Shown piece after piece: positions 346-64,000 of a DNA stretch of 64,000 nucleotides (position 1 is the first letter of the stretch; each line of letters starts with the position of its first letter). Position numbers and translations under genes: made by a program. Below the pieces are notes generated by a model. It ran no database searches and had not been told where the DNA came from. It was given only the letters and a program-made list of their open reading frames with translations. Source of the stretch: Amoebophrya sp. A120 (Eukaryota > Protista > Dinoflagellata); assembly GCA_905178155.1 (NCBI GenBank), contig CAJINV010000004.1, positions 1,518,784 through 1,582,783 of the forward strand, read 5' to 3'.

Positions 346-3300
346 CATGGAGGAAACGCGCCGGGAGTTGCAGGCCGCCCAGGAGAAGTGGATGGCCGGG
401 CAACAGCGCTGGCTGTCCGAGCTGCTGGTATCCCACAGAAAAAAGCTGGCAGGTCAGATTTGTAATGCAAAAATAAATACACAGAAAAAGCTGTCATGGG
501 CGGCCTCATAGCATGCTGTTTAGGATACGCACCACATATTTTTTTGTGTATTTATTTTTGCATTACAAATGTGACCTGCCAGCTTTTTTCTGTGGGATAG
601 CTGGCTTCCAACACCAAGAAGGCGTCGCTGCAGCTGGAGAGTTCTTGTTCTTCCTCCAAAGCCAGCAACAGCTGCACGACGGGGTCGAGTGCAACCGGCC
701 TCGGCACCATCAAGGCCGCGGCGAGTATCACGCCGCGCCTCCAAGATCTGGAGTCCGCCGTGGCGCGCAAGATGGTGCTGGTGGAGCAAAATTTGAAGGA
801 CGTGCTCGCGCAGTCGACACAGGACAACACGGAGGCCTTTCGGATCTTGCTGGAATTGGTAAAAAAGTCTTCGGCCTCGTCGTCCGCCGGCACCGCGCCG
901 CAGCCGGTTCCCGGGGCCGGCGGTGGTGGTACTGCTAGTAGTAGCACCAGCAGAAGCTCCTGCGCGACGTTGGTGGAGCGATTAGATGGTGCTGGTCGGA
1001 CACCTGTAGAAGTTCACGATCAGGCCAAAAATAAGGCGACGTTTTCGACGTCTTCAACGGACCACGGGGCTTCTTCTGAAACATCATCAGAGCGCAAGGT
1101 AAAGATCCTCGGAGCGGCCGCGGCGCGGTCGCGAAGCGTCCCGGCCGGCGGGCGACAGCAAATAGCTCTGCGCGGCGTGTTGAAGAAGAGGGTGAACTTT
1201 GCAGCCTCCACCCGCGGCCCGACTGGTGCCCCTGCACATCATTTTTCCGGGGACAGCGGGGTGGTCCCCGTCGGCGGCGGAGGCACTGTCTTGGCCCCGG
1301 GCGGGGAAGAACAAGTGGCACCGGCGCGGAGTGTGGTCGACGGGGTGCTTCGTGCCTTGCCGCGGGCGGACCTCTCCTCCAAGATCCTGGCGCAGCCCCC
1401 GAAGGGTGGATCGGGCTTCAAGCAAACTTCCGCATTAGAGGGTGCCCCTGTACTAGTGTCAGCTGTAGTATGCATTGCAAAAACTACGTCTGGGCGGTGT
1501 GGAAAGATGCAGACAATTTGTCATGGTGGTTTTTGCATATGCATGCGCATGGTGCCAAGAGGTTCTTGTGTACGGCACAGCAGCATTACAAGTTTTTCGC
1601 GGCTTCTTGCGAATTTAATCTTGTGTAGCACGACAAACTTGCTTCCAGCATGAGAAGAAAAAAAGTCGCCATGCATCACAGATCTTGTCGTCCTTCGCAA
1701 AATTTAGCATTACGAATCCAGACATAGACATAGTTGCAATGCATAAGACGGGCGGGAACTGGGCCAGGATGGCACCGTGGACCACGACTCTATTATCGCG
1801 AGAAAAGTGTTTAGTTACAGTAATACACGACATTGTGATTTCGCGGACAACGAGAAGCAAGACATACAACATCTGTCATGCCGAACATGCTTGCGAGCCT
1901 CTTTTCATCCGTGTTTCGCCCTTGTGGTCCCTTCCGCATTGTAAGTTTCCGTTTTGTAGTTCATGCCGGGTAAGTCTGTGATGCTGAAGTTCTTGCTGCA
2001 AAGAAATGTGTAAAACACTTTTCCTACCTTGGATATCCACTAGTTGCGGCTCCCAGGCGAATTCAAACTCGCAGTCAAAGGAAACCGCGAGCTCCATTTC
2101 GAAAGACACGCAAGATCATCCACCCACGAATATCCGGAGCAAAAACCTACCCACACCAGAGTTGTCATGCAGATTTGCAATGACAGGAACATTTGTAATG
2201 CGCATCGCCAGGAGAGGCATTTTTAGTCGTGTTTTGGAATTTGTAATGCTGTAAACAGGATGAGCAGATCGATTTCTGATGCAGCTGGCCTTGCGAACCT
2301 GCACTACACTACGGACTGCAATGCGTGACGCGTGACCCCCAAAAGTTCTAGGTTTGTGTTGCAAAGTCCCCATCTTGACTCTGGTTCGGGTACGTTTTTA
2401 CTCAGGATAACGAACGCCATTATCAAAGACGAATAAGTATGTCTGGGTCCGGAACAGTGTCCATGTTTGTCATGCAGATCATGTGGCAAATGCAAGAGCA
2501 AGACGAGGACCTAACCGCGTCATTGGTTATATTGTGACGGCTTCGCCATGCCTACGCTCAGCCTCCATCAGAAATTCCCTGTCTGCGTAAAAAGAGAGCA
2601 AAATAAACACGCTTGTCGCTTTTCTAGTCGCTGATGCAAGAGTACAGATTTGCATTTTATTTTTGTATGATGCACAGTAGGTCCGGGTCACCCACATAGC
2701 GCATCGCAAGTTTGTATGCTTCCAGTTCCAGATACATGTTTGCACTGCATAGCCACCCGTGGCTTGGACGAGGCGCTGCTGCGCGTTGGCGCCTCCCGGG
2801 TACTACCCTGTGTAAAAACATTCCCACCCTAGATTTGTCATGGAAATCTGCAAGCCTATGCCTACAGGAGCGCTCAGGTTTCTCATGTGCAGCCCGCCCA
2901 TAAGAAGCATGCTTGAAAAATGCTACCTGCAAGCTTCTCCTGTTAGAATCAGGAATAGCTGATCAATTTCTGATGCGGCTTCACTACGCTAGATACAATT
3001 ACACTGCGAGGAGTCCAAACTTGTCATGCGCACCAGCACTCAAAGCTTAAGCTGGTCGACTTGTGTACACTAGCAAATAAGTTCATTCCAACATGTTGAC
3101 CCTGGGGCGGAGACGTTTTTGCTCAGGATAGGCGCTGGAGCAGGCTCATCTTTCGAAGCTCTTCCCAGAGCAGGCGACGGGTGCTACTATCAAAATGAAA
3201 AATCCCTATCCCCCCTCCCGCCCATATCAAAATGGCAAGCTGTGTTGCGGGATTTGTGTACACAAATCAGCTTTGCCTTGCAATAGAGGAGTGCAGGCAG

Positions 3301-6300
3301 ATGCAAAGCCTGGAAAGGGCTGCTTAGAGGTGGCGGCGGGCGCCTAGCATGGCAGGCGTCTGCCCTGGTGGCGCAGCATCATCGCAAATTGCCTGCGTAA
3401 TGCGGCGGAAGCCCTGCTGGCTTTGCTCTCTTGCACGACAGACCTGACTTGTGGCCACAAATCAGCATCGCAAATCTCCTACGGGATGCCCTTTCGATAC
3501 GGGGAGGGGGGATTTATCCTTCCGATAGCTACCCTGGCTGCCGCAGGCGGACCGGGGTGTAGTTTTCCGCCTTCGTCTGCCACAATCCCTGTATCAGCGT
3601 CGTCCTCCACGATCTCCTCCTCCTCTGCCGCGGGGCAAGTTCGCGTGGCGGGCAGTGGCGTCTTTCATCCCGCGGGCGGCGGCGATACGGGTGAGACTGA
3701 CGTTAGCCTTCCAACCTCCTCGCATCACCTGCGTTTTGCGCCAGACGAGGATGTATCAAGTGTAAAAATGTCTGGGTCTGGAAGAATACTTACAAACTTG
3801 TGGTGTGCATACATTTCAGAACACAGAAAAATTTCTCATGCATAGGCAGCAAAAGTTGCCCACTTTATTCTGTCACCAAAATAATCAGGGATTTGTCATG
3901 CGGATTCGGCATTGCGAACGCTTCTCGAAACCTGTGATGCTAGAACTTCCATGCCAGACCTTCTGTGTCATGCAAAAACAGCGTGACTCTATCAGACCCA
4001 CCAGACCCTTTTGCATGTGATAGGACGGTGATGGGGTCTTCGCAGGGTCGTCGTTTCGTAATCTGCGGACGGGGTCGACGGTCGGAGAAAAAGACCTGCC
4101 GAACGTGCTGCTGCAACCGCCGCGGAGTGTCACCGACCCCGTAAGTCAACAAGGCAAGAACTACGCAGATTATAGTAGTGCTCTCCGGCCCCGGCCCGCC
4201 GAGCAGGGATTGAAGACAGTTTATTCCCTGGACCACGGCGGCGGCGGCAGCTCCCGTGATGTTAACGACCAGAGCTGTTCCTTCACTGGGAAGCCGACCA
4301 CCACCACAGCTGGATTCTACGAGATTTGCAACCCAAACAGTGGTGAAAACTATCCATAGAAAGAAGGCGAACTTTTTTCATCTTCGCGGATGTTTGACTT
4401 TTGGAAGACAGGTAGCAACGCAGTATGTACTAGGAATAATTCCGCGCCGCGAGGACAACGAGAAGTTACGCGCGGCTCAGAAAGGAACCGCATGAAATCA
4501 TTGTCCTTCACGAAATGAGCCTAGGCGGATGTTTTTGTTTATTTTGCGGCGACAGAAGCTATGTTTTGCATACCTACGATCCTTGCGACGATTAAGTACA
4601 TCACACGACCATGGAAAGATTTTTCTGTTTTCTATGGATAGTGAAGGGCTTTTGTTGCCCGGTACTCCCGGTGACCTCGACGAAAGCAGTGCTGTTGGGT
4701 CCGTGGCAGTATGCATTGCAAACATGTCTTGGAGGAGGTCTGGAAGAAAATTGTGATGCGGAGTTGTGAATCACTGGAAGAGGAGTTGATAGTGCCGGAA
4801 AGTACGAGAAGTTGTTAGAGCGCTCTCTCATGAGTGCATGACATTGTGTGTTTTCGCATGACGACAGAGGCTGCGCTTTTGTCGATTATGCAATGTAGTT
4901 TTTTCAGGAGATGATGGAAGTAGTGCCAGACGGGCATGACAAGCTTCACTCTTGTCCCAGACCCAGACGCGGTAGTTGCAATTCTTGATACAGAGGCGAG
5001 AAAGCCGAGAGTCAAACGGGTAAAAGCGTCGCCACGACAAGGACCCGTCCAACCACCCCGAAATTTGACGAAAAAACGGTATGGATTGTAAAAATGTCTG
5101 GGTCTGGAAACTTGTGATGCTGGTCGGCGTATCATGAAGAGGCCACAAGTGCTGGCTCAGCATGACAAGGTTTTGAGCTTCTAGGTGTTGCCTATTCTGC
5201 ATGACAAACAGCGTTTCTGCATGACAGCAGAGTGGGGCTCTTGGGTAACGTGCATGACAGATTCAAGAGTCGTGCCAGACAAGCATGACAAACATGCACT
5301 CTTCCAGACCCAGACATATTTGCATTCGATAAACGGGGGCCTACCGCATTTTCCCGAAGGAAGGCCGGGCGACGAAGACAGAAGTGCCCCTATATGCCTT
5401 GCAAATATGTCTGGGTCATTTGTATTGCGGAGGCCAGTGTAACGTTTGTCGTGGCGGATAAAGATAATTGCACTTTGTTGTCACCTGCACAACACGGAGG
5501 TAGCACTCGCAATAACGCCCGGAAAACCTGTGATGCTGTCATGCCGTACGACTACGAAATTGCACGACTCAGCATGGTGACAACAAGTCGCGTGCTTTTC
5601 CGCAGACCCAGACATATTTTTGCACCGGATAATATCCTACAACCTAATGATACAACTACCTGTAGTTTCCCAGAGACGTCGGCAGGCAACGACGGCGAGG
5701 CCGGCCCAGGAGATGCGAGCAGCAGCGCTGTGGCGAAGAAATCTACCCTGTGGCCTTCCGTATCCTGTGTGAAATTGCTTCTCCCACACCTCCGTCGACG
5801 ACCGTTTCCTTGTCATGCAAGTCTCATCGTTTCGATCGTGCAGGTGCAAAGCATGTACGATGCAAATGCAAGAAGTTGTGATGCGGGCACGCTAGCGACG
5901 TCGACGTGATGCGCCGGACGCTGTCGTCCTCACGTACTAGTATGAGTTGCAGAATCGCCCTTGTTGTACTGATTTGCATGGGGAGGGGTGGTATCAAATG
6001 CAAAAATGTCTGGGTCTGGAAGAGTCCGAACTTGTGATGCTGCATTTGGATTCCAAAAAATGACCAGCAAAGGGAATCGATTTTGGCTACGCGGAGAGGG
6101 CATTTGTCATGCGGAATAGGCATTACGAAGCCCTCAAAAAGTCTGTGATGCTAGGGCATTCATCACAGACTTCATGGCCATGCAAAACGTGCATGGCAAG
6201 TTATAAACACGGCAGCCGGATGCAAGTTATAAACACGGCCATGCAAAACGTGCATGACAACACGGCAGCCGGATGTCCGTGACCTGGTTATAAAGGGCTT

Positions 6301-6752
6301 CGTCGATCGATTGTGCCACTAGGGCCTTGTGTTCTGGCTACTCCGGATCGCAATCGATGGAGGGCGGGACCTGCACCGGCGACAGGCGCTATCCAACCAA
6401 CCAACCAACCAACCAAGTCTCAGAATCTTCCAGACCCAGACATCTTTGCATTTGATATGTGAGAGCGGTTTGAAACAGGATTTGCCGTCGAAGATATTCT
6501 GGACCAGGCGAAATGAGCCTGTGCCCTTGTATGGGGTTTAGTTCACTACACGGCGACTGGTGGGAGGATGTAGTGCAACCAAAGAAAGAGCAGCTTGTTG
6601 GCGACTACACACGACGGCTTGCGCGGCCGTCGGGTGAATTCGGTCGAACAAGTGTCCTGCGTTTATTACAGAAAGATACTACAAGAACATCTAAACAGGT
6701 TTTCTTTATTCGTCATCTCTATCACAGTGATAGTCAGATATGTATCAAATGA
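346..6752 (+). CDS. Multi-exon gene, unknown low-complexity/coiled-coil protein; 5' end lies upstream of the window, 3' end approximate
   Basis: Removing the TIR elements joins exons in frame at the junctions checked: MEETRRELQAAQEKW..ELL|ASNTKK.. into ORF 760-1653; QDHPPT|NA|TRGLDEALLRV..SRV|LEQAHL..GA|TLAAAG. Confidence 0.65.
429..599. mobile_element. Introner family C
   Basis: TATCCCACAGAAAAAAGCTGGCAGGTC...GACCTGCCAGCTTTTTTCTGTGGGATA; DR GCTGG/GCTGG; removal restores frame. Confidence 0.9.
1469..1745. mobile_element. Degenerate introner family A
   Basis: TATGCATTGCAA...TTGCAATGCATA. Confidence 0.65.
1794..2035. mobile_element. Degenerate introner, C-like
   Basis: TATCGCGAGAAAAGTGTTT...AAAACACTTTTCCTACCTTGGATA; DR TCTAT/TCCAC. 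Confidence 0.6.
2131..2409. mobile_element. Introner family B
   Basis: TATCCGGAGCAAAAAC...GTTTTTACTCAGGATA; DR ACGAA/ACGAA. Confidence 0.85.
2421..2751. mobile_element. Degenerate introner family A
   Basis: TATCAAAG..ATGTCTGGGTCCGGAA...TTTGCACTGCATA; DR GCCAT/GCCAC. Confidence 0.7.
2804..3130. mobile_element. Introner family B
   Basis: TACCCTGTGTAAAAAC...GTTTTTGCTCAGGATA; frame restored on removal. Confidence 0.8.
3188..3527. mobile_element. Introner family D
   Basis: TATCAAAATGAAAAATCCC...GGGGAGGGGGGATTTATCCTTCCGATA; DR GCTAC/GCTAC. Confidence 0.85.
3754..4022. mobile_element. Introner family A
   Basis: TATCAAGTGTAAAAATGTCTGGGTCTGGAAG...GCATGTGATA; DR GGATG/GGACG. Confidence 0.85.
4351..4640. 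mobile_element. Introner of a minor TIR type
   Basis: TATCCATAGAAA...TTTCTATGGATA. Confidence 0.65.
4710..4990. mobile_element. Degenerate introner family A
   Basis: TATGCATTGCAAACATGTC...CCAGACCCAGAC..TTGATA. Confidence 0.7.
5080..5331. mobile_element. Introner family A
   Basis: Family A TIRs; DR AACGG/AACGG. Confidence 0.9.
5393..5631. mobile_element. Degenerate introner family A
   Basis: TATGCCTTGCAAATATGTCTGGGTC...GACCCAGACATATTTTTGCACCGGATA. Confidence 0.7.
5761..6482. mobile_element. B-like introner with a family A element (5992-6457) nested in its right TIR
   Basis: TATCCTGTGTGAAATTGCTTCTCCCACACCTCC pairs with GGAGGGGTGG|insert|..GAGCGGTTTGAAACAGGATT; DR TTCCG/TGCCG. Confidence 0.6.
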
Positions 6753-6929
6753 TTGAAGAGATGAACAACAACAAATTGCACCAGTCCAGCTTTGCGCGCT
6801 GATTTCTTTTGTTTCCGCGTCCCCAAAGGACGGCGGCTTGACAAGTATCTTAATCTCGACGCCCAAACGGATTGTTCGTGGTCCTCACGGGTCGTGATGA
6901 TGGTTCTAGTTCGTGGTCACTTGCAGCTC

Positions 6930-9935: not shown

Positions 9936-12900
9936 ATGTTGGATCGTACCTTTCGTGGGCAGGTTTTTGTAACAGTGACAGCGCTCTTCTTTTTCACGAC
10001 TCACCATCAACATGGCATTTCGGGGGTGAGACTCGTAGCCGCGGTTTCTCGACAATTGTTATCCACTGCAAATGTGTCTGGGTCTGGAAGTTTGCAAGAC
10101 CTATAATGACGCTTGCTTGCTTGAGAGGAGAGAGAAGTCTGTCGTGCGTGATCTTGTGCTACAGGGTGATCCTTGAAAGAGCTTACTTTTCTCATTACCA
10201 AAAAACGCAAAAAGAATTGTACTTCATTTGTTTGTCGTCGTCGTGCGAAAGGGCACGCTTGACGTATTTTTTGCCCAGAAACTTGTCATGCTTGTTGCTC
10301 AACGTCAGCCGCGCACGAGCATTACAATTTTCCCAATAACCCTGACACAATATTTGCAGTTGATATTTGTGTCGCAGTTACGATTGTCCAACTGCAGAAG
10401 CAGACAGCGGGGCCGGCCTGGGGAGTCCCATCATGGTGACCAGCACCTATCCAGGAAACGAATTGGTCGATTGCACGACCGGCGATGATCCTGGGGCTTT
10501 ATCTCCTTGGTGTACCCAGGAATTGTGCTGCACAGGAGCTGATCAGAGTGTGTCGACGACCGATTGCGGGGATTTCTGCGGCGCGCTGAAGGACTCTAGT
10601 GACAAAGTTATGGGTGTCGCCACTCACATTTACTACAATCCGCACCGTTGCACTGCGTTTTCGCTTGCGCATGGAGATTGGTGCAGTATGAAAAAATGTC
10701 AGTGCGAGTGCAACATCGGGGGGGGGTACCGCCTGGATCCAGAAAAAGTCGCCTATACCTCTCTTCGAGACTTGCGCAGCGACTGTAAGCATACTTGTGC
10801 GGATGAGCCTGCTGGTTTCTGTACTGACAAGAAGTATCTGCCGAAAGACGGCTTGGCCGCGATTAGCTGTAATGGAGCGGCGTGCACGGCTGATGAGTGT
10901 TGCAAACCGACCTGCACAGCTACGGATACTACAGCCCCCAGTAAAGGAAGCTATTCATGTGGATCTCTTGCTACTCCTAAAGTACTGTCATCCGACGCGG
11001 CGGGGAATCTCATCGCCTGCAGGGAAGAGGCTGATGCTACTGCATGTCCAGCAGACACTGATGCGTGCTGCATGGAACAAACCTGCGCGAAGTATACTTT
11101 TGACGACGCTTCAACGAGCTTTGCTGCTTTCGGAGGTACTTGTGGTAGCAGTGCCATCGGTGACGCCAGTTTATTGAGTAAGGCCAGTCCGGAAACGATC
11201 CCCTGCCCCTCTGGTTGCACCGAAGTTGAATGCTGCGACGGACCGACTGTCTGCCGCGACGTCACATGCACTACGAAGGACTTTGTTGTTCCGAATGGAA
11301 GGCTGAACAAGCAGTGCGCGGTCAGCATTCATGAGGGTACGTTCGTCGAAGATTGCCAAGGAACCTGCTGCACTTCCACAACGTGCGCAAGCGAAAGCGC
11401 AAACGAACAATTTAGCTGCAATAACAAAGGACCAGACGGGACTGACCTTATCCTCCGGGAAGATGCCGCCAGCATCGGCTGCGACGATGGCGTATTCACT
11501 GCAAATCAGTTTGGGTCTTCTAGGAGCTTGTGATGCTTGTTCTGGTAGGCTGGAGAATCTTCACGAGGACGCCTTCATGGACGGACAAGCATGAAGAAAA
11601 CGTACTACTAGGCGTTGGCCATTCTGCATGACAAATACTTAGCGTTTCAGCGTGACAGAAAAGCGCGGTGCTTCGGCAACGTGGATGGGATTTTAGTTTT
11701 CAATATAAGACTCGTGCTAGCTGCCGCGTATGACAGCCCTTACATTCTTTCCCCAGACCCTGAAATATTTGCAATCCATATCACGGGTGCACACGGGCTT
11801 TGTGCTGCCGTGGGGCTTACTGCGGGGCGTGCCCGCACGGCGTCGAGGGGGCGTGCACAAGTGACCTGATCGGCCTGCCCAACTGCCAGAGTTGTGACAA
11901 TGGCTATCATAGAGTCGTGACCCCAGGACATGGAGGCTCATACAGTTGCCAGCCGAACGTGTGCCTTTGTAGCTACGGCACCCCCGACACCGGCACCGAC
12001 TGTGTGACTGATTCGGTTACGAGCTGCAAGCTAGGCAGTTGCTACGACGGTTACAACATGGTGATCAATGCGAACAATCGGCGCGAATGCGTTCCGAACG
12101 AACTGTGCAAGGACGGTTTTGCGGCGGAGTCCGAAGTATCAAATGCAAGAAATATGTTGTTCGGGTCTGGAAGTTTGCAGAAAATGTATGTCATTCATCC
12201 TCTGCAATAGATGGATGAGCTGGAATGCCGCATGAGAAACTCGCAGCTGTTTACGTACCAAGAAGTGGTCAGCTGTAGCCCTTCGAGAGTTTGCTGCATC
12301 ACTTCCAGAGGACCCACACGTATTTGCAATTCATACGAAGTGCAGTGTCCGGCGGGCACGTCAGTCGTGATGGGCACCGCGGCCACCCTTCTGCGGTGCA
12401 GTGCAGCAGCATGCACCAGTATGGCAGTGCACAACCCCCCGTCCCCCTCATTGGCCATGCAAAATGCCAAATCCAGTTGCTACCTTGTGACACTGTTTGC
12501 ATGCTGCCAGATTCTGAAAACCCAAAGAGTACTACACTCGGCGCACCAAGTACGTGTCATGCACCGCCTCCACGTGTGTTGGTGTGTCTATTGCTGTTCA
12601 TGCAATACAGATGAGGGGGAGCTGCAGGGGAAGTGCACTTTGATAACCTGTGCCGACGATGCTGCTACCTGCTGCGTCAGCGATTGGAGTAGTTCGTGCG
12701 CCGTATCCTGAGTGAAGACTACGTCGTCACCCCAAACTTTTCATGCACGTTTGCATCTACAGGATCAGGAACATCATCAACATTTGTGATGCGCATTCCC
12801 GTGAGACGCGTTTCTAATCGTGTTTCGGCATTTGTATTTTCAAAAATAGTTTAAAAAAGGCGAAGCAGACGGCGATGGCTATGTGATGCGGCCGTCCACC

Positions 12901-15900
12901 CTCTCCCTATCCTTGTGTTGCCGAGGTCCCGAGGACTTGACTTTGTGTTGCAGAGGTTCCACTCTGGATTTATGTTGCAGAGGTCCCAAGAACCTGATAT
13001 TGGGCTGGGGACGTTTTTACACAGAATACGCCGCCGCGGCCGGAAAGGAGGAAATCACCTGCCCAGCCGTCAACGGCGCGGCGCGCGTCATCGATTTTTT
13101 CGCTAAGTGCGACGTATCCAACAGAAATAAAATACACCCATCGTCGCAGAAAAAAAGTCTATTTGTGCTGCCAAATTGGCGTGAATGGCAACTCTGGACT
13201 TCGAAGACCACAAGAGTGGCAGTTTGCTGCGATGCGTGTGCATGTGCAGCGGCTTGTTGTAAATGTGGATTAGCGACAATTAATGACCCTATAATCAGCT
13301 GCAACACAGTTTCACTATACTTAGTGCTTACCTATTGCGTTTTTAGTATGAAAATGGGTTTACTTGTTTTCTGTGGGATACAACGGCGCCACCTGCACGC
13401 CTAGCGAGTGCTGCGTCAATGCGCCGTTGTGCGCGACGCTGACTTGCCCGGCCGCGAAGCCGCTGAATCGCGGCCCGAACGTGAGTTGTGCGCTGGCGAC
13501 CGGGTGCGAGGTTCCCGAATGCTGTATCAAAATGAAAATCCTTCTCGTCATACTCAAAGTGGAATTTGTGTAGCATGATTTGTGATCACAAAGGCAGTTG
13601 TGATGCTTGTAGGGAAGAGATGCAGGAGACTGTGCTTAGTGCTGTCCGGCGCGGGTAAGCCCTGCCACTCCAGCATGACAGGAACCAACTGCATTCGCCC
13701 AGAACAGAACGACAAAGCTCCTGAAATACACAGGCCGCGAGTCTGTTTGTCCCTTTACCTTCCTAAAATACAAAGGGATCTGTGTACACAAGAAGTTGCG
13801 CACCGGAAATCTCCTTTTGATATGGGGAGGGGGATTTTTCCTCACAATATGCTGCGTGGTTGCCTCGGAGCCGTTCCGCTCGGTCACGACGTTGTCCATG
13901 GACCTGCCCGTATCCAGGTGAAAAGTGCCATATCCCCAGAAATGGAGAAAATTTCTGATGCATAAGGGTTTCAAATGAAAAATGCATGAGGGGACTACGA
14001 GTCATCTTCCTGGTCCAGAGCTGGCACTCTCGGAAGCATGTTTCACATGACAATTTTTGCAGCCGCTAGGCTGCATGGCGAATTTATGATGCTGGAGGAT
14101 GTAGGTGGATGCGGACAGCGTTTCCATTCGGAGCTTTTGCACGCGCGAGCGCCCTCCGTTTCTGAGATAGGGGTGCTTTTCACTTCCATAGTCCGCCGAT
14201 GCGGACTACACGGAAGCCGAGCTGTTGGACACACTCGGTCCCCTATCCTGTGTAAAGGCGTCCCCGCCGCATACTTGCCATGCAAATCTGCATGGGGTGT
14301 TTCGGAATGTGTCATGTTAGAACTAGGATATGCTGCTGAGCGATTTATCATGCAGCCGCACTAGCTAAACACGACTACACTTCTGCAAGCCCAATTTATT
14401 AATTTGTTCTGCGCATTGCACATAGCTTGTGGGTCTATTGCGTAGCAACGACGTGTCCACGATCTTGTTGACTTTCGGGCGGGGCTTTTTTTCTCAGGAT
14501 ATCCCAGCGTGAAAACCGGCCTCGAGCAGAGCATCCGTGCCGTCGCACCGGCGGGTTCCGTAGTCCAGGTCGAGATCATTTCGATCACCTTATCCTAAGG
14601 GAAATCGTCCCTACCCCAGAGTTGTAATGCAAAACGGCTTGCCTAAAGTAAAAGTAAAATCAAAATGTTTCCCATGCGCTGCAACCCAATGAAGGCATCT
14701 TCTATAATCTAATGCTGTCTGGCAGCCTGTCAGGCTACATATCGCGATGAGATGATGATCGATTTGTCTGTAAAATGCGGCTGCACCGAACCACCAACAC
14801 CATGACACTAGGATCCCAGACTTGTCATGCGCCACAGCCGGCAAAACTTGTTAATTTCTTTGTGTAGCCAAAACCCGGCAGGAGTCTGAGTCACTGCCCC
14901 TCTCCTTTGTTTGAATCACTTCCCCACGCATCACCGCCCGATCCGGATCAAGACCCCACCTCCCCCGCATCACCTCCGGCAGCCGGCGATGGACTTGGTT
15001 GTTTAGGGTCGTCTAGGGCCTAGGGTTCGAGGTTTCGGGTCGCTCCGTCATGCCGCCCCCCCCGTCCATCCTTTTCCGCCTGCCTTTGGGCCTCGGCTTC
15101 TTCCTGGCCCCCAAGTTTCATGCCCTGGCCGTGTCTGCGTGCCGTGTGTACTTGCACTTTTGCGCGCCCCGCGTGCCGTTTCAGGTTCGTCATCCTAGGC
15201 CTGCCTACAGACGGCGGCCACATACGTAGGCAGGCTCGCGGAGCGCAGCTGCGGGCGGCAAGGGTACTTATTACAGTGTGCGGCGGGGAAGTGGGGCCGG
15301 GCTCCCCCACTTCCCCAGCACTGCCTGGGGAAGTACTTCTTTGCCCACGACCCGAGGGGCAGCACTTCCACTTCCCCAAGGTGGGTCAGTGGGGGAGTGA
15401 TGCTTGGGGAAGTGGTTCACACCATAAACCCAAATCCCCACCCCATCTGCGTCTTGACTCTGGGGTGGGGGCGTTTTGCCTGAGGATGCATCTTCGAGAA
15501 TTCCCGCCGCCGCACGCAGCTGGAAGACCCGCACTTGGAACGCAGAGCGGTGGAAGGCGCGATTGCTGCTGGAACAACCGAAAACTATCGGGGTACATAT
15601 GCATTGTGACTATGTCTGGATCTGCAAAAGTGAAACCTGTGCTGCGGGTTTGGGAATCCTGTAAAATCTGTATCGCACCTCCATGACCAGCATCACCAAA
15701 ATTAAGCTCTGTTTTGTCATGCAAAAGCACAGTTTCTATTAATGCGCACTACACGTACACGTTGATTGTACACATCAGGAAGCGTCCTCAAGATTTGTCA
15801 TGTTTGGCTCCTGCAATCCGGAGTATGATATGCTCAGTCCCTTGGCCGCTCAGCATCGCAGGTCTCCAGACGGACCCAGACATCTTTGCACCAGTTGATA

Positions 15901-18125
15901 GTACTACTAAATCGCCGACCGAGCGACAGTACACGAGGGACAACAAGCGTCGACGAGCGTCAGCTAGTACAACCAGGTCTGATGTGCTTGTGGACTTCAC
16001 CGTCAAGGGCGGACAGGCCGAGTCCGGGGAGGACCTTCCTGTCGAGTATCGTAAGGAAAGATCCCCCCACCTCCCCATGCCCAACGGGAAAGTTTATGAT
16101 GCAGAATTCTGGTCACAAATCAGCTCGGTCTTGCAGGAAGACAACGAGTGCGCCAGAGGCTTCCGCCTCATTGTGCAAGCGATTGGGCGGAATGATCATG
16201 CTGCTCGGCGGCCTAGAGGGTAGCAGTTTGCAATTCTAAACCACTAGACTTAAACGCCCCGGCCCAGGCTGAAGATCTGGCCGCAGTGCCTTGCTGCAAG
16301 ACCACAGAGCGTACTTCCGTGTGAAGGCAAGTCCAACACTAGAAACTCCGTTTGGGCCGCAATATGGGGAGGGGGGATTCATTTTCCTCTTGATATCAGG
16401 GAGCTGGTGACAAGCCTGCCCGCTGCCGATCTCGAGGCTGCGATTGCGGACGCAATCGAGGCGAACTCAGCGACGCTGCCCGAAGGCGTGAGCGTGGCCG
16501 ACGTGGTTAGCGCACCCGCGCCGCAGAGCGAGACCAGCACCCCCGTGTCGTATCAAATGTACTTAAAAATGTCTGGGTCTGGAAGAGTCATGTTGTTTTT
16601 GCATGACACAGAAGGTCTGGCATGGAAGCTCTAGCATTACAGGTATCGAGAAGCTTCCGCAATGCCGAATCCGCGTGACAAATCCGCCACTTTGGTGACA
16701 GAAAGTGGGCAGCGCTTGCTACCCATGCATGAGAGATTTTTCTGTGTTCTGAAATGCGCATCACAAGTTTGTATTCTTCCAGACCCAGACACTTTTGCAT
16801 TTGATACGTCGGGCAACGCACCAACTACCACGCGAACCACCGACACGAATGACGACGAAGATGAGGAAACTATCGTCCTTGTCTTTGTTCTCGTGGGCGC
16901 CGTTTTGCTAGTGATGTTCCTGTTTTCGATGGCGGTGTGGCGCCAGAAAAAGCACGAGGAGGCAACGCGAAGATACATGCAAGCTTACAACCGCGACGGT
17001 TCGTGGGGAACACAATCGGGGAATAAAATGTGGAAAGGTGGTATCCAAGAAAAAAACATTGTAGGTGTAACTTTTTTGGAGGAACAGCATTACAAATTTG
17101 TCTGGCATGACAGCAAAAACCTGTCATGCGCAGATAGTACGTGAAAACGCCCTTTAATGGGAGCTACGATGCATGCCAAGCATGACAGACGCAATCGTCT
17201 TGCAGGTTGCGCATGACAAATTTACACTAACAACGTTTTTTTCTTGGATAGGTGGTAAGCAGTACGGGGGACAGCGTGCAGCTTGGGATATATGCATTGC
17301 AAGTGTGTCTGGGTCACCTGGAAGAGTTCCAACTTGTGATGCTAAATCTCGACCAGACGAAAATAAATCTGTATTGCGTGAGGGTGCCAAAAGGCTGCTT
17401 ATTTTTCGCTTGCACAATTTGCGAATTTGTCATGCGGGGTAGGCATGATCAGGAACAGGAAGCCTTGGCCTTCGCAACAAAACCCATATAGATAAATGCT
17501 TCACGTGCATTCCAGAGCACTCATTTGTTCCAGCAGATGCATGACAAACTTTACTTCCAGACCCAGATATGTTTGCATTTGATAAAAACAAGGCAAACGA
17601 GGCTACAACAAGAACGAGCGCTGGCACTATGGCGCCGGCGGTTCTTCCCCGAGCTCCGGCGGGAAATGGGGAGCAGCATTATCAAATGCAAAAATGTCTG
17701 GGCCTGGAAGAATGCAACTTGTGAAGCTGCATTTGGATGTCTAAAAAATTTGTGTTGCATGAGCAGCAAAAGATTTCTGAATTTTGCTACGCGGAGAGGG
17801 CAGCTGTCATGCGGAATAGGCGTCAAGAACCCCTCAAAAAACCTGTGGCGCTAGGGCATGCATCACAGACATCATGGCTCATGCAAACCGTGCATCACAA
17901 GTCTCAGAGTCTTGTTCCAGACCCAGACATTTTTGCATTTGACAAACATCAAAGGGAAAGAACAAGTGGGCAGGAGGCACCAGTCCGGCTACGCCTCCCC
18001 CCGTGCGCCCGAAGAGCCCTGCGCCGGGGCTTTTGGGACAAGGGAACAAGGGCAGTTCTTCGTGGTCCCCGCATCCCCAGGGCATGCCGGGGAAAGGTGG
18101 CCTCCTTGCCAGTTGGATTTATTAA
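9936..18125 (+). CDS. Cys-rich type-I membrane (surface) protein, paralog 1, 16 introners; alternative in-frame ATG at 9804
   Basis: Hydrophobic leader; repeated Cys motifs such as CTADECC; TM IVLVFVLVGAVLLVMFLFSMAVW followed by RQKK; G/K/P-rich tail; exons join in frame where checked. Confidence 0.75.
10060..10365. mobile_element. Introner family A, homologous to 22448 and 24408
   Basis: TIRs; DR ATTGT/TTTGT; joins QL|CRSY. Confidence 0.8.
11493..11780. mobile_element. Degenerate introner A, shared with paralog (26490-26771)
   Basis: Joins DDG|GCTRALCC in frame. Confidence 0.75.
12137..12335. mobile_element. Introner A, shared with paralog (27131-27328)
   Basis: DR CGAAG/CGAAG. Confidence 0.8.
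12420..12645. mobile_element. Introner family G, shared with paralog (27413-27647)
   Basis: TATGGCAGTGCAC...GTGCACTTTGATA; DR ACCAG/ACCTG. Confidence 0.7.
12704..13028. mobile_element. Introner B, shared with paralog (27706-28141)
   Basis: DR CGCCG/CGCCG. Confidence 0.85.
13115..13380. mobile_element. Introner C-like, paralog-1 specific
   Basis: TATCCAACAGAAA...TTTCTGTGGGATA; DR CGACG/CAACG; empty site at ~28220. Confidence 0.8.
13525..13849. mobile_element. Introner D, shared with paralog (28367-28699)
   Basis: DR TGCTG/TGCTG. Confidence 0.85.
13911..14190. mobile_element. Introner family H, shared with paralog (28761-29027)
   Basis: TATCCAGGTGAAAAGTGCC...GGTGCTTTTCACTTCCATA; DR GCCCG/GTCCG. 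Confidence 0.8.
14244..14501. mobile_element. Introner B, shared with paralog (29081-29430)
   Basis: TATCCTGTGTAAAGGCGTCCCC...CTCAGGATA; DR TCCCC/TCCCA. Confidence 0.8.
14591..15488. mobile_element. Long introner B with internal cargo, paralog-1 specific
   Basis: TATCCTAAGGGAAATCGTCCCTACCCCAGAG...CTCTGGGGTGGGGGCGTTTTGCCTGAGGATG; DR CACCT/CATCT; empty site at ~29745. Confidence 0.8.
15598..15900. mobile_element. Degenerate introner A, paralog-1 specific
   Basis: DR GTACA/GTACT. Confidence 0.7.
16047..16395. mobile_element. Introner D, shared with paralog (33065-33431)
   Basis: TATCGTAAGGAAAGATCCCCCC...GGGGGATTCATTTTCCTCTTGATA. Confidence 0.8.
16551..16806. mobile_element. Introner A, shared with paralog (33587-33848)
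   Basis: DR TGTCG/CGTCG. Confidence 0.9.
17042..17250. mobile_element. Introner C-like, paralog-1 specific
   Basis: TATCCAAGAAAAAAAC...GTTTTTTTCTTGGATA; DR GGTGG/GGTGG. Confidence 0.85.
17291..17584. mobile_element. Introner A
   Basis: Family A TIRs; frame restored WD|QGKRGYN. Confidence 0.75.
17680..17944. mobile_element. Introner A
   Basis: Family A TIRs; DR AGCAT/AACAT. Confidence 0.85.
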
Positions 18126-22164: not shown

Positions 22165-25100
22165 ATGTTGGATCGTACCGTTCGTGGGCATGCTCTTGTA
22201 ACAGCGGCAGCGCTCTTTTTGTTCACGGCTCATCGTCAACATGGAATTGCCCAAGCCGTTACAAACTGTGCCGCAGTCTCGGACGGCGCTACGGGATTTT
22301 TCTGGGATGATGCGAGCTGCAACACTGCATTGCACCCTGATGAAGGTGTAGTGAATGATGAAGCAACATGCATCAACACTAAGGACGATACCAGCCCTGG
22401 AGATTGTGGTCATGCTGGCACATGCTGCCGCGTGGTAACACAATTGTTATCAATTGTAAATATGTTTGGGTCTGGAAGTTTGCAAGACCTATGACGCTAG
22501 CTTGCTTGCTTGACAGGAGAGAGAAATCTGTCGTGCGTGATCTTGTGCTACAGGGTGATCCTTGAAAGAGCTCACTTTTCTCATTACCAAAAAACGCTAA
22601 AAGAATTGCACTTCATTTGTTTGTCGTCGTCGTGCGAAAGGGCACGCTTGACGTATTTGCTCAGCAACTTGTCATGCCTGTTCGCCCCTTATTGGAGGTT
22701 GCTCAACATCCGCGCACGAGCGTCACAATCTTCCCAATAGCCCCGACATGATATTTGCAGTTGATAATTATGTGGTAGCTTCACGTCGTGTCCTGTAAAC
22801 TCGAATCCTATCATGGTGACCAGCAGCTACCCGCCGGCTTTGGACAGCAAACTTGTGGACGATTGCACCGATGTGTCTAGCGACACCACCTTTTGTACCC
22901 AGGAGTTGTGCTGCACAGCAGCAGGTGTGTCTCAAGATTCTTCGGATACCAGCTGCGGGGCCTTCTGCGGCGAGCTGAAGGATGCAAATGGAGTGGCTAT
23001 CGGTGTCTCCACCCACGCGACACTGAGTCAGAAACTATGCAAGAGGTGGACCCTTAACCAGGGATATTGGTGCAGTATGCAACACTGTCGGTGCGAGTGC
23101 AACGCCGGCGCGGGGTACCACCTGGTTACAGATAACGGCCTGTATTCCGTTGCTCGAGACTTGCGCACGGACTGCATAAAGCCGACGTGTTTGAAGCATG
23201 GTGGCGCCCTGGACGGTTCAGAGGCCACTGCGAACTCATTTTGTACCGGCAGTTCTTATTCCCCAAAAGACAGCTTGAGCACAATCGAGTGTCAAAACAG
23301 TCGCTGCACAGAAGAGGAGTGTTGCAAGCCGCGGACGTGTGGCAATACCGATGGAGGAAATGCGGTTTACTCGCCGTGTCCCTCAGGCTCCGCACTCAGA
23401 GCCGGCCCGGCTTATCGTGAGATACATTCTCCCCTGCCCATACTCAAGATGGATGAAATTTCCGATGCCGCTGTGTGGCCACAATGCATATTTTCGAAAA
23501 AGGCGAAAAAGCGACACACCTTACGCTCACTCTGTAGGCCATTGGACCGTAGAGCTACGTAGAACTACGTCGCACTTCGTCGAGTAGTGGTGATAGATTG
23601 CGCGCCTCTGCGCTTTCGTTCTTTTTATGGATCCGTTTTTTTGTTTGGTTTTGCGTTTGTTCGTAATGCTTGCATGAAAGAGCTCCCATTGCTGGTGGAG
23701 GCGCCACCCTGGTTGCGGATTTGGGGGGACAAGCTCTTTCATGTCGGAGCACCTGTATGCCGCTGGGAAGGAAGCGCAGCAAGCTTCTTGCTGAATTTGT
23801 CCGAATTGGCGCAGCAGCGGCCAGCTTCGGCTGCTTCTTTCCTGCGTTTTGCCTCCACATGCATAAGGACCTCCAGGGCCGTGCGTCATGTTCGAGCTCA
23901 CGACTTAAGCGCACGCCGCACGTCTGGCCCTCGTGAAGCGGGGGCCCAGACCCATGCTGCGCGTTGTAGCTGCCCGAGCCGCCTTCTCGTTGCGCCTTCT
24001 ATCACCACTCATTTTCCGAAAGGCCTGGACTTTCATGACAAGCGCTGTAGAGTTTACTCGACCCTTCTTTTTTACTGATTTTAGTCGAAGGCCGCGGCCG
24101 CCCGGACGTCCTGCCGGTAGATCACCGATGTCATACCATTCTGCGCAGAATTGCAGCCTTCGATCCTCTTTCATCCTGAGCCAGCGAAGCGTCTACCTGC
24201 TTCCCACGCCTGCACTCTGCCTTGCCTGTGTTCTGGCATGACAGAATGGTTCTTTGCGTACAGAACTCTCGCATCAGAACAGAGTTATGCATTGGAATAT
24301 GGGAGGGGGGATTTTCCATTTTGATATGAAGAACTTCAAGTGCGGCAACGACGGGTATGGAGACCCCTGTGACCAAAACCGCTGCTGCGTGGCTTTGGAA
24401 CCATTGCTATCAACTGCAAACATGTCTGGGTTTGGAAGTTTGCAAGATCTGTGATGCGTGCTCGACAGGAGAGAGAAATCTCGCACGCGTGTTGTGCACC
24501 GGGCGTGTCGATCCCGGAAAAGGAATGAATACACTTTCGAGAAAACGAAAAACGAATTGCTACAGGGGGTGGTCCCTGGTTTGTCGTGGCGCCACGAGTG
24601 GCAGTAACTTTCGGAACGGAATCCCGAAAACTTCTTCGGTCATCATCCGCTAGCACAGATGATCGATTACTACAGGCACTGGCGGCGTGGACATCGTAGC
24701 AGGGTTTCGTTAAGGTAGCTGCCTGTTTTACTGAAAAGTACCTGAGGGGCCAGGCCATGAGGTGCTAGGCGGTCTAGCAGCTCCGGAGCGGTAGGTGGCC
24801 GCGTGCCTGTTCTTCATCCGCGGCGCCAGCGCGCTTCCTTTTTAGGAGTTCGAGTTTCGGTCTCTGATTCCAAGCTCAGGGTGTTTGGGCTGCTGTTTAG
24901 TTGGGCGGTGCACCGCGGTGTTTTGTAGGGTTGCCCGAGTGATTCCTTTGTTTCGTTTGGCAGGCTGCCTTACCCCCTGGCTTCAGGGCTTGTTGGTATC
25001 GTCCTAATCTGGCCGGGCTTTCTTCCGCATTGTTTGAGCGGCGGCTTTGAAGTCCTTTTACGCGCGAGTTTGTTACTCGGCATTCTAGCGCGCCAGTAGC

Positions 25101-56834: not shown

Positions 56835-56835
<1 letters not shown>

Positions 56836-58059
56836 GAGCGAGCAAGGACCTAGTAAGGTGATGACGTCCTACGCCAAGAATGACAACACTAAAACACGAG
56901 CCACGAACATCTGGCCCCTGATTATGCTCGTGAGTAGCCTCGCAGTAAGTATGTCAGAAGCTTCACTGATAGGGTGAATGTATATACAACAGCTTATTGG
57001 GTCTGGCTCCAAGAAGATCCGCAGACAGTTTTCCAGGTCGTTGAGACGTTCTTCTGCGGAAATTCGGGCAAGGAAGAGGTGAAAGTAGAGGGGGTGTCTG
57101 GTTCCAGCGGGAATCTGGTGGAACGTTTTTGGTCAGATAAAGGGAGCCAGCCCCCGGACACAGGAAAGAAATTGAGAACAATGCACGCACAGCTACGAGG
57201 TTCTCGGAAAATCTTAACACGAGAATTAGCGCACTAGGATAAGCTGAAGCGTTTGATTGTTATGTCGGGCTCTCACACGGATTCGCGTTGTTAGCATGAG
57301 AGATTTCGCAAGTTTTCTTTCGTGTTATAGTATAAGGCCGTGCATAGTAGAATGATTGATTTTTTTTTTGGAACACTCTTGCTTGGTTAGAGCACTTTGC
57401 TTGGGAATCTTTTGAAACACTCTTGCTTAGTCAGATACATAGCGGGAGTCTGCCCTCGGACACAGAAGAGAAAACTAATAACAATGTGCGCACAGCCCCG
57501 AGCTTCTCGACAAATCTCAGGGCGAGAACTATGCCACTGAGTACGCTCTGAATTAAAAAGAGCACGCGTGGCTGATTGACCTCCGCGTGCGTTTTTTAAA
57601 AGAACGCGTTTTTTAGAAGAACGCACATGGCTGATTGACGGATTCGCGCTATGAGCGCTATCCTGCCTTGCTTCAAAAAGTCTCGCGAATCTACTTCAAA
57701 ATCATAAGGCTCATCTTTGCTCGTGTCGTTCACCCTCGCTTTCTGTTTTACTAGTTCCGTCGAAATGCGTTCCGTCGTCGTCCATCTGTTGTCGTTCGTT
57801 TTCGTTCTTGTTCCCCCTCGTCACCCCTATTGGTCGTTCATCATCGTTCTTCTGGTTGACAAAGCAGCCTACTTACTTCACATCAGATTCGATCCCACTA
57901 ACTACGCTTAACCGTAAACTTTATTTTCCCTCAACAACAGTCAACCCACGACCTACACGTCTGTTTCATTCACCACCTATAGCTCCTCCTTCTACGAGTG
58001 CAGCAGCAACCCTGCGCGTACTCATCTTCTCTCACCTATAGAACAAGCAGCATCAAAAA

Positions 58060-61083: not shown

Positions 61084-64000
61084 ATGCCTTCTGATTGCGT
61101 TGTTGCTCCCCCGTCTTTGTTGCTCTCCGCCGAGCGGGGCAGCGTCGTGACGGATCTGGCCCTGCATCCTGCCGAAAGCAACCTCCTCGCGACCGCGTAT
61201 GCCGAGGGAAAAGTGGCGGTCACTCTGGCGCCGCGGAACCACGCTGGAAGGGATTCTTCCGCAGCGGGAATAGGGGTGCAATGGAAGGCACACGAAGATT
61301 ATGGGAGAGAAGTGCACAAGACCTCGGGCGGCTTTTTCTCTCTTCCTCATAACATAAATTACGATATAATTTCTATGATCTGCGAAAAGAAATAAAGCAC
61401 CACACCATTTCGGGCAAGCGAAATGCTTCTCCACCTGCACGATTTTAAGTTATAAATCCACACACAACTGCGAGGCTGGTGCTGTTTGATATTGATTCCA
61501 GAAGAAGACGATCGCCTCTCGTCATGCAGGCAGAAGTGAAACGAACGAAAGAATGAATCGAAAAGTTGGTTAGTAGTTTTGCCATTAATTTACAAGTTTC
61601 GGTTCGAATCTTTATCTTGTGCTCGAACGGTAAAATGGATTATGCACTCCCTCCATACGGGCAACGCATGGGACAATCCGGTTCGGTGCTGCTGGCACGA
61701 CGCCGTAGCGGCTACGGGAGCAACTTCGTTAGGAACAACTGCATCGGCGGACTTTTTTGGTCAAGAACATCAGAGCAGCGCGCCGCTGCTCGTTACGACG
61801 GGCGGCGGTGCGGTAAAGGCGTGGTCGCTGGGAAAGGTACTGGACAGGCTACGGCGATATGATGCGGGCGGTCGCCGGGAGATCGGGCGGCGCGGCATGG
61901 GAGTCGAAGAGCTTTCTTCCACCAGAACTAGCAGTGCTGTGCACCGGAACTACCCTCCCCGCTGCGCGTCCACAATTTCGCTGCGACCCGTGTGGAGTGT
62001 GAGACTGGCACAGCAGGAGTCCGCTCCTGGTCGCCAGGATCCTGTGGCCGGAACTACCCTGGGAGCGGGTGGTGCATCAAGATTTTCCGCAGGTGGTACT
62101 AACAAGTTGCACCAACGATTTCGCTCGCTGTACTGCACCTCGCTTGCGGCCGGTTCCGAATCGGTAGCTGTGGGAGACAGCTGGGGCCGGGTGTCGGTTA
62201 TCGACATCGCCCGAGGGTTATCAAATGCAAGAAATATGTCTGGGTCTGGAACATGGCAACTGGTCATGCCAGATCTGGATCATGCGAAAAATCTGTGTTG
62301 CAGGATTACCAAAAGCTGGCCACTTTTGACCAAGTTGACATGGGGTTTCTCATGCAGAATAGGCATGACAGAGCCAGAGGTCTCATAGGATCTGTCATGC
62401 GAGGTGGTAGGTTCTGCATTCTAGACCTCATGCGTCATGTACCAACTGCATGACAAGTTTGCGTCTTTCCAGACCCAGACATATTTGCAATGCATAAGCG
62501 TGTCGCCTCGCGGTGTTCGACGCGCACGTGCAACCCGTCTCCGGGATCGCGTTTTGCCCCGAGGAAAGTGGGACGACGACCACAAGCGCCACCACCGATA
62601 TCAAGTGCAAACATGTCTGGGTCCCATGCTAAGTGCAAACATGTCTGGACACTTGTCATGCTAAGTAATACATGAATGACACAATGACTAGAGTACGCAG
62701 CCAAGCATGACAGATTTTTGAGCGGTCTTGTGGTGCGTAACACTCATGAGCAACTGCGCTTTTTCATCATGACACAGAAACATCACTGCTATTCCGCAAC
62801 ACACATATACAGAGTTTGGGAGTACTATGCGAGTCCAGCATTACAAATCTCGCAAAAATCTTGTTCCAGACACAGTCGTATTTGCACTTGGTAGCCGAAC
62901 TACAGATGGCGCAATTTTTTGGCCCGCTGGAGAGGCTAGCGACCGTGGGGTTTGACGGGAAGGTCAGAATATGGAGGTAAGACAACTTCGCATTTTTTCC
63001 TTTGCCATCAGGAACATTCAGATAGTATAGTACTCACATCTGCGAAGAAAAACGCCTCGGTCAACATACCCACATAGTACTACCGCATTTCTCGTGCTGA
63101 TTGAAAAAAAACCTTTTCTTCTTCCAGGCCAACCGGCGTGGTAGCAGCACCGGGCGGCTTTGCGGGTGCTCCGTCCGTTTCCGGTCTGCAACAAGGTATC
63201 CAATATAGACATCGGTCTGGGTAGAAGTGTTCTGAAAAAAGACTGCAAGACTTGTTGATGTAATGATGACCTGGCGCCATCGCCAATGCCATGCGACTGC
63301 GTGTGGTCTTTTTCTTTTTCGCAGGACAACTTTGATCTTCAGAACGTCCCAAGAATCATGTCATGTCAGTTTGCAATGCATACAAGGAATAAAGTTTGAG
63401 CCGCAACACCAGCTGGCGTATGTGCAGGAACTTGTGGATGACAACGAGAACGATCCCATGAGCACAGCTGCAAAAACCTCCCCCTCCCAAGTTGTAGGCA
63501 GCAACTCCCAGCAAAGTCGGCACCATCGCACGCTGCTCGCTGTGGCGTGGCACCGGTTTGGGGCGGATGACTGTGTTATCAAATGTAAAAATGTCTGGGT
63601 CTGGCATGGTTAGAACTTGTGATGCAAACTCTGGAGGACACAAAAATTTGTGTTGCATGAGCGCCAAAAGCTGTCCATTTCTTGGCACACAAGTAGGAAG
63701 TTTCTCATGCGGGACAGGCATCATGAGGCGTGCTCAAAACCTGTGATGCTTTTGCCTGCATCATACGCCATTTGCGTGATCCGAAATATGCATGACAAAT
63801 CTCGCAATCTTCCAGACCCAGACATTTTTACATTTCATATGTGTGGCCGTCGGAGGGTACGGCGGAAAACTCCGATTTCTGGCCTTCAACGCAGAGAAGG
63901 GGTGGCATTTTGTCCAAGACACGGCTCGTCCTGACGAGGGCGCTTTATTGGATCAGGAACTACTACACGGAAAAACAACGAAGATGGAGCAGGAGCAAAA
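61084..64000 (+). CDS. WD40-repeat protein; continues past the window end
   Basis: VTDLALHP..LLATAYAEGKV; VAVGDSWGRVSVID..FDAHVQPVSGIAF..LATVGFDGKVRIW; VAVGGYGGKLRF after splicing. Confidence 0.75.
61300..61657. mobile_element. Degenerate introner
   Basis: TATGGGAGAGAAGTGCA...TGCACTCCCTCCATA; joins AHE|DNAWD. Confidence 0.65.
62219..62496. mobile_element. Introner A
   Basis: DR AGGGT/AGCGT. Confidence 0.85.
62599..62893. mobile_element. Introner A
   Basis: DR ACCGA/GCCGA. Confidence 0.8.
62977..63127 (+). other. Canonical GT-AG intron
   Basis: AG|GTAAG...TTCTTCTTCCAG|; in-frame join. Confidence 0.75.
63197..63382. mobile_element. Degenerate introner A
   Basis: DR CAAGG/CAAGG. Confidence 0.75.
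63577..63839. mobile_element. Introner A
   Basis: DR TGTGT/TGTGT. Confidence 0.9.

Follow-up and report, generated by a model that had tools for sequence, protein, structure and literature searches.

The 64,000-nucleotide window of Amoebophrya sp. A120 analysed here (contig CAJINV010000004.1, positions 1,518,784 to 1,582,783) contains 85 curated inverted-repeat elements with TAT…ATA ends, spanning window positions 429 to 63839. With little doubt, these elements are removed at the RNA level in a fixed register. The intron is 1 nucleotide (nt) + element + 4 nt, that is N + TAT…ATA + NNNN, and runs from element start-1 to element end+4. By sequence, the elements match the A120-type introner elements of Amoebophrya in each directly testable feature; the phenomenon itself is therefore already published (PMC7789003), and the fixed register is the added result. 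A preliminary description of the window, which counted about 75-80 elements over the same interval and linked them to the introners of Farhat et al. 2021, was right on both points, the number being slightly higher. Our preferred reading, with a probability of about 0.55, is that the elements are non-autonomous DNA transposons, with TAT…ATA ends and a 5-base-pair (bp) repeat, which are removed by a relaxed, U1-independent spliceosome.

Removal of the elements from RNA

The evidence for removal comes from contigs of four public runs (X1-X4). That these runs are RNA is a guess, and a single study with no more than two samples supplied all four. The likely-RNA contigs lack the element plus 5 nt at 30/30 checkable elements, and thus show the absence from transcripts and the non-canonical ends of A120-type introners. 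The 30 length checks comprise 14 direct joints, 15 elements covered by three exact sums in one contig, and one case read from the ends of contig pieces. In gene 1, 13 intron coordinates were predicted before contig mapping; 13/13 were found in 4/4 runs with a length of element + 5 nt. An X3 contig of 3884 nt spans 46929-55472, a gene with a PF03407 match, and shows gaps of 2215, 1520 and 925 nt. These equal the element + 5 sums for 15 elements and two GT-AG introns, while +4 or +6 misses all three. The evidence for this gene consists of contig-piece coordinates and sums; compensating errors are unlikely given three exact matches. X3 pieces of the WD40-like gene end at 61298, 61662 and 62216.

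Two unusual structures are processed in the same way. A 6-nt microexon lies between two elements (2414..2419, plus strand); the joint from 2130 to 2752, with one letter between, is found in 4/4 runs, and for it position 5 has to come from the right repeat copy. A nested element (5992..6457, plus strand) forms a twintron inside 5761-6482. One contig of one run (X3) skips 471 nt (466+5) and keeps the outer intron; the nested element was removed before its host. Retained forms are also seen for three elements, 4710-4990, 1794-2035 and 61300-61657. For 4710-4990, X1 and X3 have unspliced contigs with about 40% of the spliced depth, and this element is partly covered in X2; contig depth is a poor measure and this is one case. 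A joint from 3789 to 6086, found in X1 only and with a 20-nt side, links two copies of one family and was rejected as a repeat artefact. The other public runs are two DNA-like runs, one of them X5, and three raw RNA runs. Two of the latter (X7 and X8, same species label) gave 10 and 2 reads, all on repeats, and are uninformative on expression.

Removal of element + 5 nt also restores the reading frames. In seven genes the longest stop-free stretch rises from 229-413 to 358-1496 codons. The open frames after removal are 693, 1032, 1496, 127, 640, 1222, 358 and 454 codons long, all on the plus strand, and 82/85 elements lie within these eight frames. The frames fail when the element is removed with 3, 4, 6 or 7 nt. 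Removal with 2 or 8 nt keeps the frame; both lengths are ruled out by the RNA lengths and by homology at 13/15 junctions of the GT77-like (PF03407) gene. The preliminary description had claimed that deleting the element with one repeat copy restores proteins, which agrees with the eight frames and the 30 lengths.

A fixed 1+4 register

In this register (k=4) the mRNA keeps repeat positions 1-4 of the left copy and position 5 of the right copy. Among 17 junctions with cut-range data, k=4 is allowed at 17/17, k=3 at 12, k=5 at 11 and k=1 at 4; at three of the 17 the repeats are perfect and any register is permitted. The microexon pair adds the constraint that k is at most 4. No register other than k=4 is allowed throughout. 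Junctions 48065 and 61300 each fix the register alone, the second through two contig ends and not a listed joint. When the GT77-like product is compared with protein P0001 of Amoebophrya sp. A25, k=4 is best or tied at 8/8 mismatched junctions and sole best at 48065 and 54501. A codon-score comparison of registers over 76 elements at other loci had no power to discriminate.

The mirror register is excluded at 13/17 junctions, yet families are present in both orientations within plus-strand genes (9 vs 5 in the largest family); the asymmetry of the cut therefore follows the transcript, which argues for RNA processing and not DNA excision. Among the verified introns, flanks match at 1/5 positions in four and at 2/5 in another four, so the repeat is an insertion scar and not a guide. 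The proposal in the preliminary description that element and one repeat are removed thus holds for length; it fails for the direct repeat as a signal, as the cut is fixed relative to the terminal inverted repeat (TIR). The sum 1+4 equals the length of the duplication, so an element inserted either way round still yields the original mRNA; coding sequence can therefore become saturated with elements.

The paper on A120 and A25 introners (PMC7789003) describes splice sites that vary relative to the hairpin, with the inverted repeat 1-5 nt away, and no clear dinucleotide signature. In the window, by contrast, a single register suits every junction, T+2 and A+3 are invariant, and the repeat has a constant length of 5 bp and can be mismatched. 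A T at +2 is latent in Table S4 of that paper and is not discussed in the portion of its text covered. No statement of a fixed register was found in the literature covered; the figures of Farhat et al. and the paper of Roy et al. 2023 lie outside this coverage and could show part of it.

Bases at the intron ends

GT-AG ends are rare in the elements. They occur in 4/85 elements at the true register and could occur in 7/85 at any of six registers, in line with the preliminary claim that most junctions cannot be GT-AG; nearly all of these introns thus lack the GT/GC-AG ends of the U2 type. The four GT-AG element introns fall on the 1+4 register. T+2 and A+3 are present at the donor in 85/85 elements.

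Further elements were sampled from one metagenome assembly, in which the TIR pattern retrieved 133 overlapping loci (L001-L133; 607,597 bases) with 485 distinct further elements. Since these include hundreds of elements of the same families, that metagenome contains an A120-like Amoebophrya whose introners are active. Applied to the window, the detector recovers 65/85 elements exactly with 2 other calls; codon-based orientation was correct for 82/82 in cross-validation. The set of 316 well-oriented elements with repeats of at least 4/5 is biased to young copies, and the contig RNA check covers the window only.

The outer base of the TIR is conserved asymmetrically. In the window there are 0 variants at the left end, where it is the donor T+2, vs 7 at its mirror position on the right; the 316 oriented elements have 0 vs 6 (pooled sign test, p 2e-4). 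At +4, the left end varies more than its mirror (17 vs 6 pooled), mostly to C; C at +4 is also found in 4/5 canonical donors of the window (GTAC). Five of the 316 are GT-AG. At other loci there is a drift to G at +1 (12-14 vs 2-5; p 0.013-0.064 by threshold). A linkage between +1 and -1 at other loci (p 0.012) was discarded as it is no stronger than three of four neighbouring-position controls.

Structure and families of the elements

The elements have a median length of 280 nt (range 139-2787) and occupy 29,105 bases, or 45% of the window. Their ends were paired by motif and then completed by hand. Position counts over the 85 elements give the shared end TAT-N7-AAA of A120-type introners. Searching strictly for inverted ends flanked by a perfect 5-bp repeat gives 16 matches vs 0-7 in 10 block shuffles. 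End-motif matches scoring at least 10 number 61 left and 73 right vs 4-8 on one strand in three shuffles; the matrix was trained on the window itself, which makes this comparison partly circular. Flank identity is maximal at 5 bp (mean 0.75, vs 0.24-0.34 at 2-4 and 6-9 bp); the 3-5-nt direct repeat of A120-type introners is thus present here at 5 bp only. Flanks match perfectly in 31 elements, at 4/5 positions in 26, at 3/5 in 13, at 2/5 in 7 and at 1/5 in 8, and mismatches are spread evenly over the five positions (19-24 each).

Clustering, which the preliminary description had proposed, gives repeated families as in A120-type introners: a 14-node cluster, in which one node is the host of a nested copy, a 5-member cluster and pairs. 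Different families have unrelated interiors. The motif TGTNATGC occurs 134 times in the elements vs 2 times in the remaining 34.9 kb; it is subterminal, faces inward and has no transcript-strand skew (515 vs 475). It may be a transposase-binding site common to all families. TIRs, the fixed 5-bp repeat and empty paralogous sites are features of miniature inverted-repeat transposable elements (MITEs). Lack of coding capacity is another: six long elements, read without a Pfam scan, hold only short or repeat-derived open frames. An A120 TIR family with integrase-like homology has been described and is a lead only (PMC12130899). A TIR pattern search of viral contigs gave no match.

The largest element (29884..32670, plus strand; 2787 bp), in gene 3, has a perfect 5-bp repeat and two opposed arrays (99 bp x 15.3 and 30 bp x 5.6), from which its open frames derive. 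It faces an empty site in gene 2 near 15935-15972 and matches metagenome locus L015 at 96% over 593 bp. This element may be the shell of a larger autonomous element. The long elements 14591-15488, 23413-24326, 24408-25299 and 38826-39955 (0.9-1.1 kb) have unrelated interiors and possibly contain further nested inserts. Two elements found by the TIR and repeat scan, 41380-41601 and 42074-42279, lie outside coding frames. A lone right TIR (320..345, plus strand) is a strong end-motif match with no convincing partner, its left end not being found in the window; a loose X3 end lies before 346.

Mechanism of removal

In the preferred reading, a single transposase family would mobilise all elements through the TAT-N7-AAA end and TGTNATGC and would leave the 5-bp duplication. 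In the transcript the left end would present N-U-A, equivalent to U+2/A+3 of the canonical GUA donors of the host. The TIR stem, or proteins on the end motifs, would bring the ends together, replacing U1 and the recognition of AG. The 3' cut would be counted from the terminal AUA, and branching would occur at one of its adenosines, A-7 or A-5. Farhat et al. found nearly all spliceosomal proteins together with U2, U4 and U6, and did not find U1, in both A25 and A120 (PMC7789003). In their Table S4, T occupies +2 in 9/9 predominant motifs for A120 and 9/9 for A25, including TT- in A25 (PMC7789003). Inverted repeats of A25 start with TTA (PMC7789003), which would place T and A at +2/+3 from a different TIR. 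U+2 is paired with A51 of U6 in the P complex of yeast. The contig that supports the PF03407 gene also lacks its two GT-AG introns.

Several points weigh against this reading. The motifs of Table S4 may carry aligner bias. In step 2 the known spliceosome recognises G+1, G-1 and A-2, none of which is fixed in the elements: G+1 is found in 93/316 elements, and acceptor AG in 21/316 shows no enrichment vs 17-24 at other repeat positions. In the window G+1 is found in 38/85, an apparent enrichment that loses significance with paralogues and phase removed (29/72 vs 22.9, p 0.08); the drift to G at +1 is absent there (5 vs 5). A branch A at -7 or -5 is nearer to the 3' cut than the approximately nine nucleotides discussed for yeast, and canonical 3' ends in the window show no matching AUA motif. 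The outer-base asymmetry weakens to 3 vs 7 with poorly bounded calls and 6 vs 7 unfiltered; five of the seven right-end variants keep a U-G pair, so that a hairpin model fits too. The paralogue test on genes 2 and 3 favours or ties k=4 at only 15/22 junctions. The RNA status of X1-X4 is itself a guess, and these runs represent few samples.

A stronger form of the spliceosomal reading, which is a tentative proposal with somewhat less than even odds, is a universal transposon-erasing splicing. Here a U1-less spliceosome would ignore G+1 and AG, read only U+2/A+3 and the branch A of the TIR, and count to the 3' cut, which would make removal scarless in either orientation; A25 would have arrived at the same U+2/A+3 register through its different TIR (TTA).

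The most serious competitor, which we consider possible and clearly less probable than the preferred reading, is a spliceosome-independent, structure-guided nuclease and ligase making the 1+4 cut at fixed offsets from the base of the TIR stem, as proposed for euglenid introns. Free terminal dinucleotides and the missing U1 of A25 and A120 suit this enzyme, and Euglena introns, which pair +4..6 with -8..-6, have a similar offset geometry. As in euglenid introns, stable pairing of the ends is predicted, with at least 10 bp in 28/30 verified introns (no shuffle control). Contigs of X1 and X3 retain 4710-4990, which alone among the verified introns is predicted to pair its ends hardly at all. Against this, 1794-2035 pairs well and also has retained contigs, TIR positions 4-10 pair poorly (45-62/85), and all three TAT:ATA pairs are predicted above 0.5 in only 19/30 verified introns. 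Stems have no excess of G-U over A-C (174 vs 153, p 0.27, in the window; 155 vs 174 at other loci), so that nothing points to selection for RNA pairing. What is invariant is the donor base U+2.

The other alternatives are improbable to different degrees. Self-splicing, or a domesticated transposase acting on RNA, is suggested by a removed length of element plus duplication and by the transposase-type motifs at the ends; it is improbable, as no Rfam family matched in a scan of the window, family interiors are unrelated, the open frames in long elements are either short or made of repeats, the subterminal motif lacks a strand skew, and Farhat et al. report no transposase in A120 (PMC7789003). 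Excision from DNA, somatic or through element-free alleles, with spliced contigs derived from excised DNA or retrocopies, is very improbable. X1-X4 are not on record as RNA, and rare DNA joints are possible among the joints of X5, which are swamped by repeats. Contigs of the DNA-like X5, however, carry the elements they span; the spliced contigs also lack GT-AG introns, partly processed and retained forms exist, and no link between cut and transcript direction is expected from a TIR that is symmetric and occurs both ways round. Least credible of all are ordinary spliceosomal introns whose GT/GC-AG ends are misplaced by sliding in the repeat or repaired by RNA editing. The four GT-AG elements and the possible editing at 2-4% of boundaries noted by Farhat et al. 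(PMC7789003) speak for this. The small number that can be GT-AG in any register speaks against it, as do low-ambiguity joints ending GT..AC, CT..CG and AT..CA; no letter differences are listed between gene 1 exons and X1-X4 contigs, and junctions pinned at mismatched repeats contradict sliding.

Comparison with known introns

A120 and A25 introners share with the elements inverted repeats of TAT, seven variable nucleotides and AAA, direct repeats of 3-5 nt, a mean length of about 240 nt, occurrence in families, mostly non-GT-AG ends and RNA support (PMC7789003). The nonconventional introns of euglenids and diplonemids (PMC6221363, PMC11170887, PMC11282704) also have free terminal dinucleotides, repeats resembling target-site duplications (TSDs), and an end-pairing motif that lies inside the splice sites, the overhang being longer on the 3' side; a MITE origin is proposed for them and their machinery is unexplained. 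Their motif differs: euglenids have CAG/CTG at +4..6 and -8..-6, whereas the elements have TAT/ATA at +2..4 and -7..-5 and lack the euglenid motif. Euglena is an unrelated lineage which has kept U1 and in which release of circles is reported.

Introns of Fritillaria borealis are likewise MITE-derived, genome-wide and non-GT-AG, and are handled by a modified U2-type spliceosome, with duplicated U2AF and altered N6-methyladenosine in small nuclear RNA (snRNA) (PMC13326754, PMC11282704). Fritillaria keeps U1, and AG-AC and AG-AT are its preferred ends; the elements of the window have no fixed base at +1, -2 or -1. Introners of Micromonas, Aureococcus and Polarella (PMC11282704, PMC12130899) are also transposons with TIRs and TSDs that turn into introns on insertion. 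A GT/GC donor and an AG acceptor, made from the element and the TSD, are used there; neither end is needed here. Canonical introns are described for AT5 and for the Karlodinium parasite (PMC12005148).

Genes interrupted by the elements

All genes described here are on the plus strand, and five ordinary GT-AG introns lie among the elements. Gene 1 (429..6482; 693 open codons in the window) has 13 elements, all skipped as element + 5 in X1-X4 contigs: 429-599, 1469-1745, 1794-2035, 2131-2409, 2421-2751, 2804-3130, 3188-3527, 3754-4022, 4351-4640, 4710-4990, 5080-5331, 5393-5631 and 5761-6482.

Genes 2 and 3 are paralogues. Gene 2 (10060..17944; 1032 codons restored, with support from paralogue comparison) encodes Cys-rich repeats with a hydrophobic segment near the C end. 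Its 16 elements are 10060-10365, 11493-11780, 12137-12335, 12420-12645, 12704-13028, 13115-13380, 13525-13849, 13911-14190, 14244-14501, 14591-15488, 15598-15900, 16047-16395, 16551-16806, 17042-17250, 17291-17584 and 17680-17944. Gene 3 (22448..35924; 1496 codons restored) has 19, at 22448-22766, 23413-24326, 24408-25299, 26490-26771, 27131-27328, 27413-27647, 27706-28141, 28367-28699, 28761-29027, 29081-29430, 29455-29676, 29884-32670, 32724-33014, 33065-33431, 33587-33848, 34155-34431, 34491-34752, 34844-35216 and 35541-35924. Ten elements are common to both genes, while several private elements face clean empty sites in the paralogue, which shows insertion. The two genes (9900-18100 and 22150-36200) encode large Cys-rich proteins which are probably membrane-anchored; their differences provide a natural clock for element decay. 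The Cys-rich exons scanned against Pfam gave nothing beyond a weak DUF7107 match (E 0.08). The transmembrane helix named in the preliminary description is read from the sequence only.

The gene at 37604-41373, which we take to be cold-shock-like, has 126 codons, a Gly/Lys-rich tail and exons of 23-55 nt. Frame restoration reads through 127 codons across seven elements between 37652 and 41333: 37652-38020, 38061-38205, 38243-38540, 38826-39955, 39997-40310, 40355-40669 and 40985-41333. Two GT-AG introns lie at 38600-38801 and 40718-40949. The gene at 43300-46020 (640 codons restored) has three elements, 43755-44109, which is called mainly from frame restoration, 44325-44529 and 45118-45361.

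The PF03407 (GT77-like) gene has 1222 codons and 15 elements between 48065 and 55168, placed by the X3 sums and homology to A25: 48065-48358, 48418-48689, 48806-49067, 49168-49426, 49488-49696, 49816-50156, 50242-50484, 50551-50845, 51190-51509, 51760-52008, 52482-52792, 53004-53377, 54242-54424, 54501-54773 and 54907-55168. Its GT-AG introns are 52106-52351 and 53815-54006. The product is 57% identical to P0001 over 1035 columns and shares with this A25 orthologue the DxD-like motif LDFD. This upholds the DxD motif of the preliminary description; the family label is weaker, since PF03407 matches one exon at E 4e-4, under the curated cut-off, which the orthologue exceeds.

The gene at 58050-60055 (358 codons restored; no spliced contig listed) has four elements, 58119-58380, 58955-59190, 59342-59612 and 59680-59818. 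The WD40-like gene (454 codons) has five, 61300-61657, 62219-62496, 62599-62893, 63197-63382 and 63577-63839, placed by X3 pieces and protein P0005, and one GT-AG intron at 62977-63127. The WD40 label given earlier is weak (E 9e-5, under cut-off). The reconstruction equals deposited protein P0005 at 453/453 residues (registers 4 or 5); this agreement is not independent, because P0005 was itself deposited as a gene model for this DNA.

By eye, three diverged intergenic copies that are nearly element-free lie upstream of genes (approximately 6900-8100, 8770-9900 and 19300-22200). A seemingly element-free open frame, also seen by eye and with no X3 coverage, lies beside an (ATG)17 run at about 56200-56770.

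Significance

The way in which Amoebophrya removes tens of thousands of non-GT-AG introns has been a question since 2021, and a 2024 review lists it as unexplained (PMC11282704). For annotation, the register gives a simple rule: locate TAT…ATA and cut at -1 and +4. This rule rebuilt one deposited protein exactly. For biochemistry, it names the 5' nucleotide for a 2'-5' link, two candidate branch adenosines and two donor bases that are expected to be essential. If the spliceosome is responsible, the conserved step-2 pairings of G+1, G-1 and A-2 would be dispensable; if it is not, dinoflagellates would have a second nuclear route of intron removal, convergent with that of euglenids.

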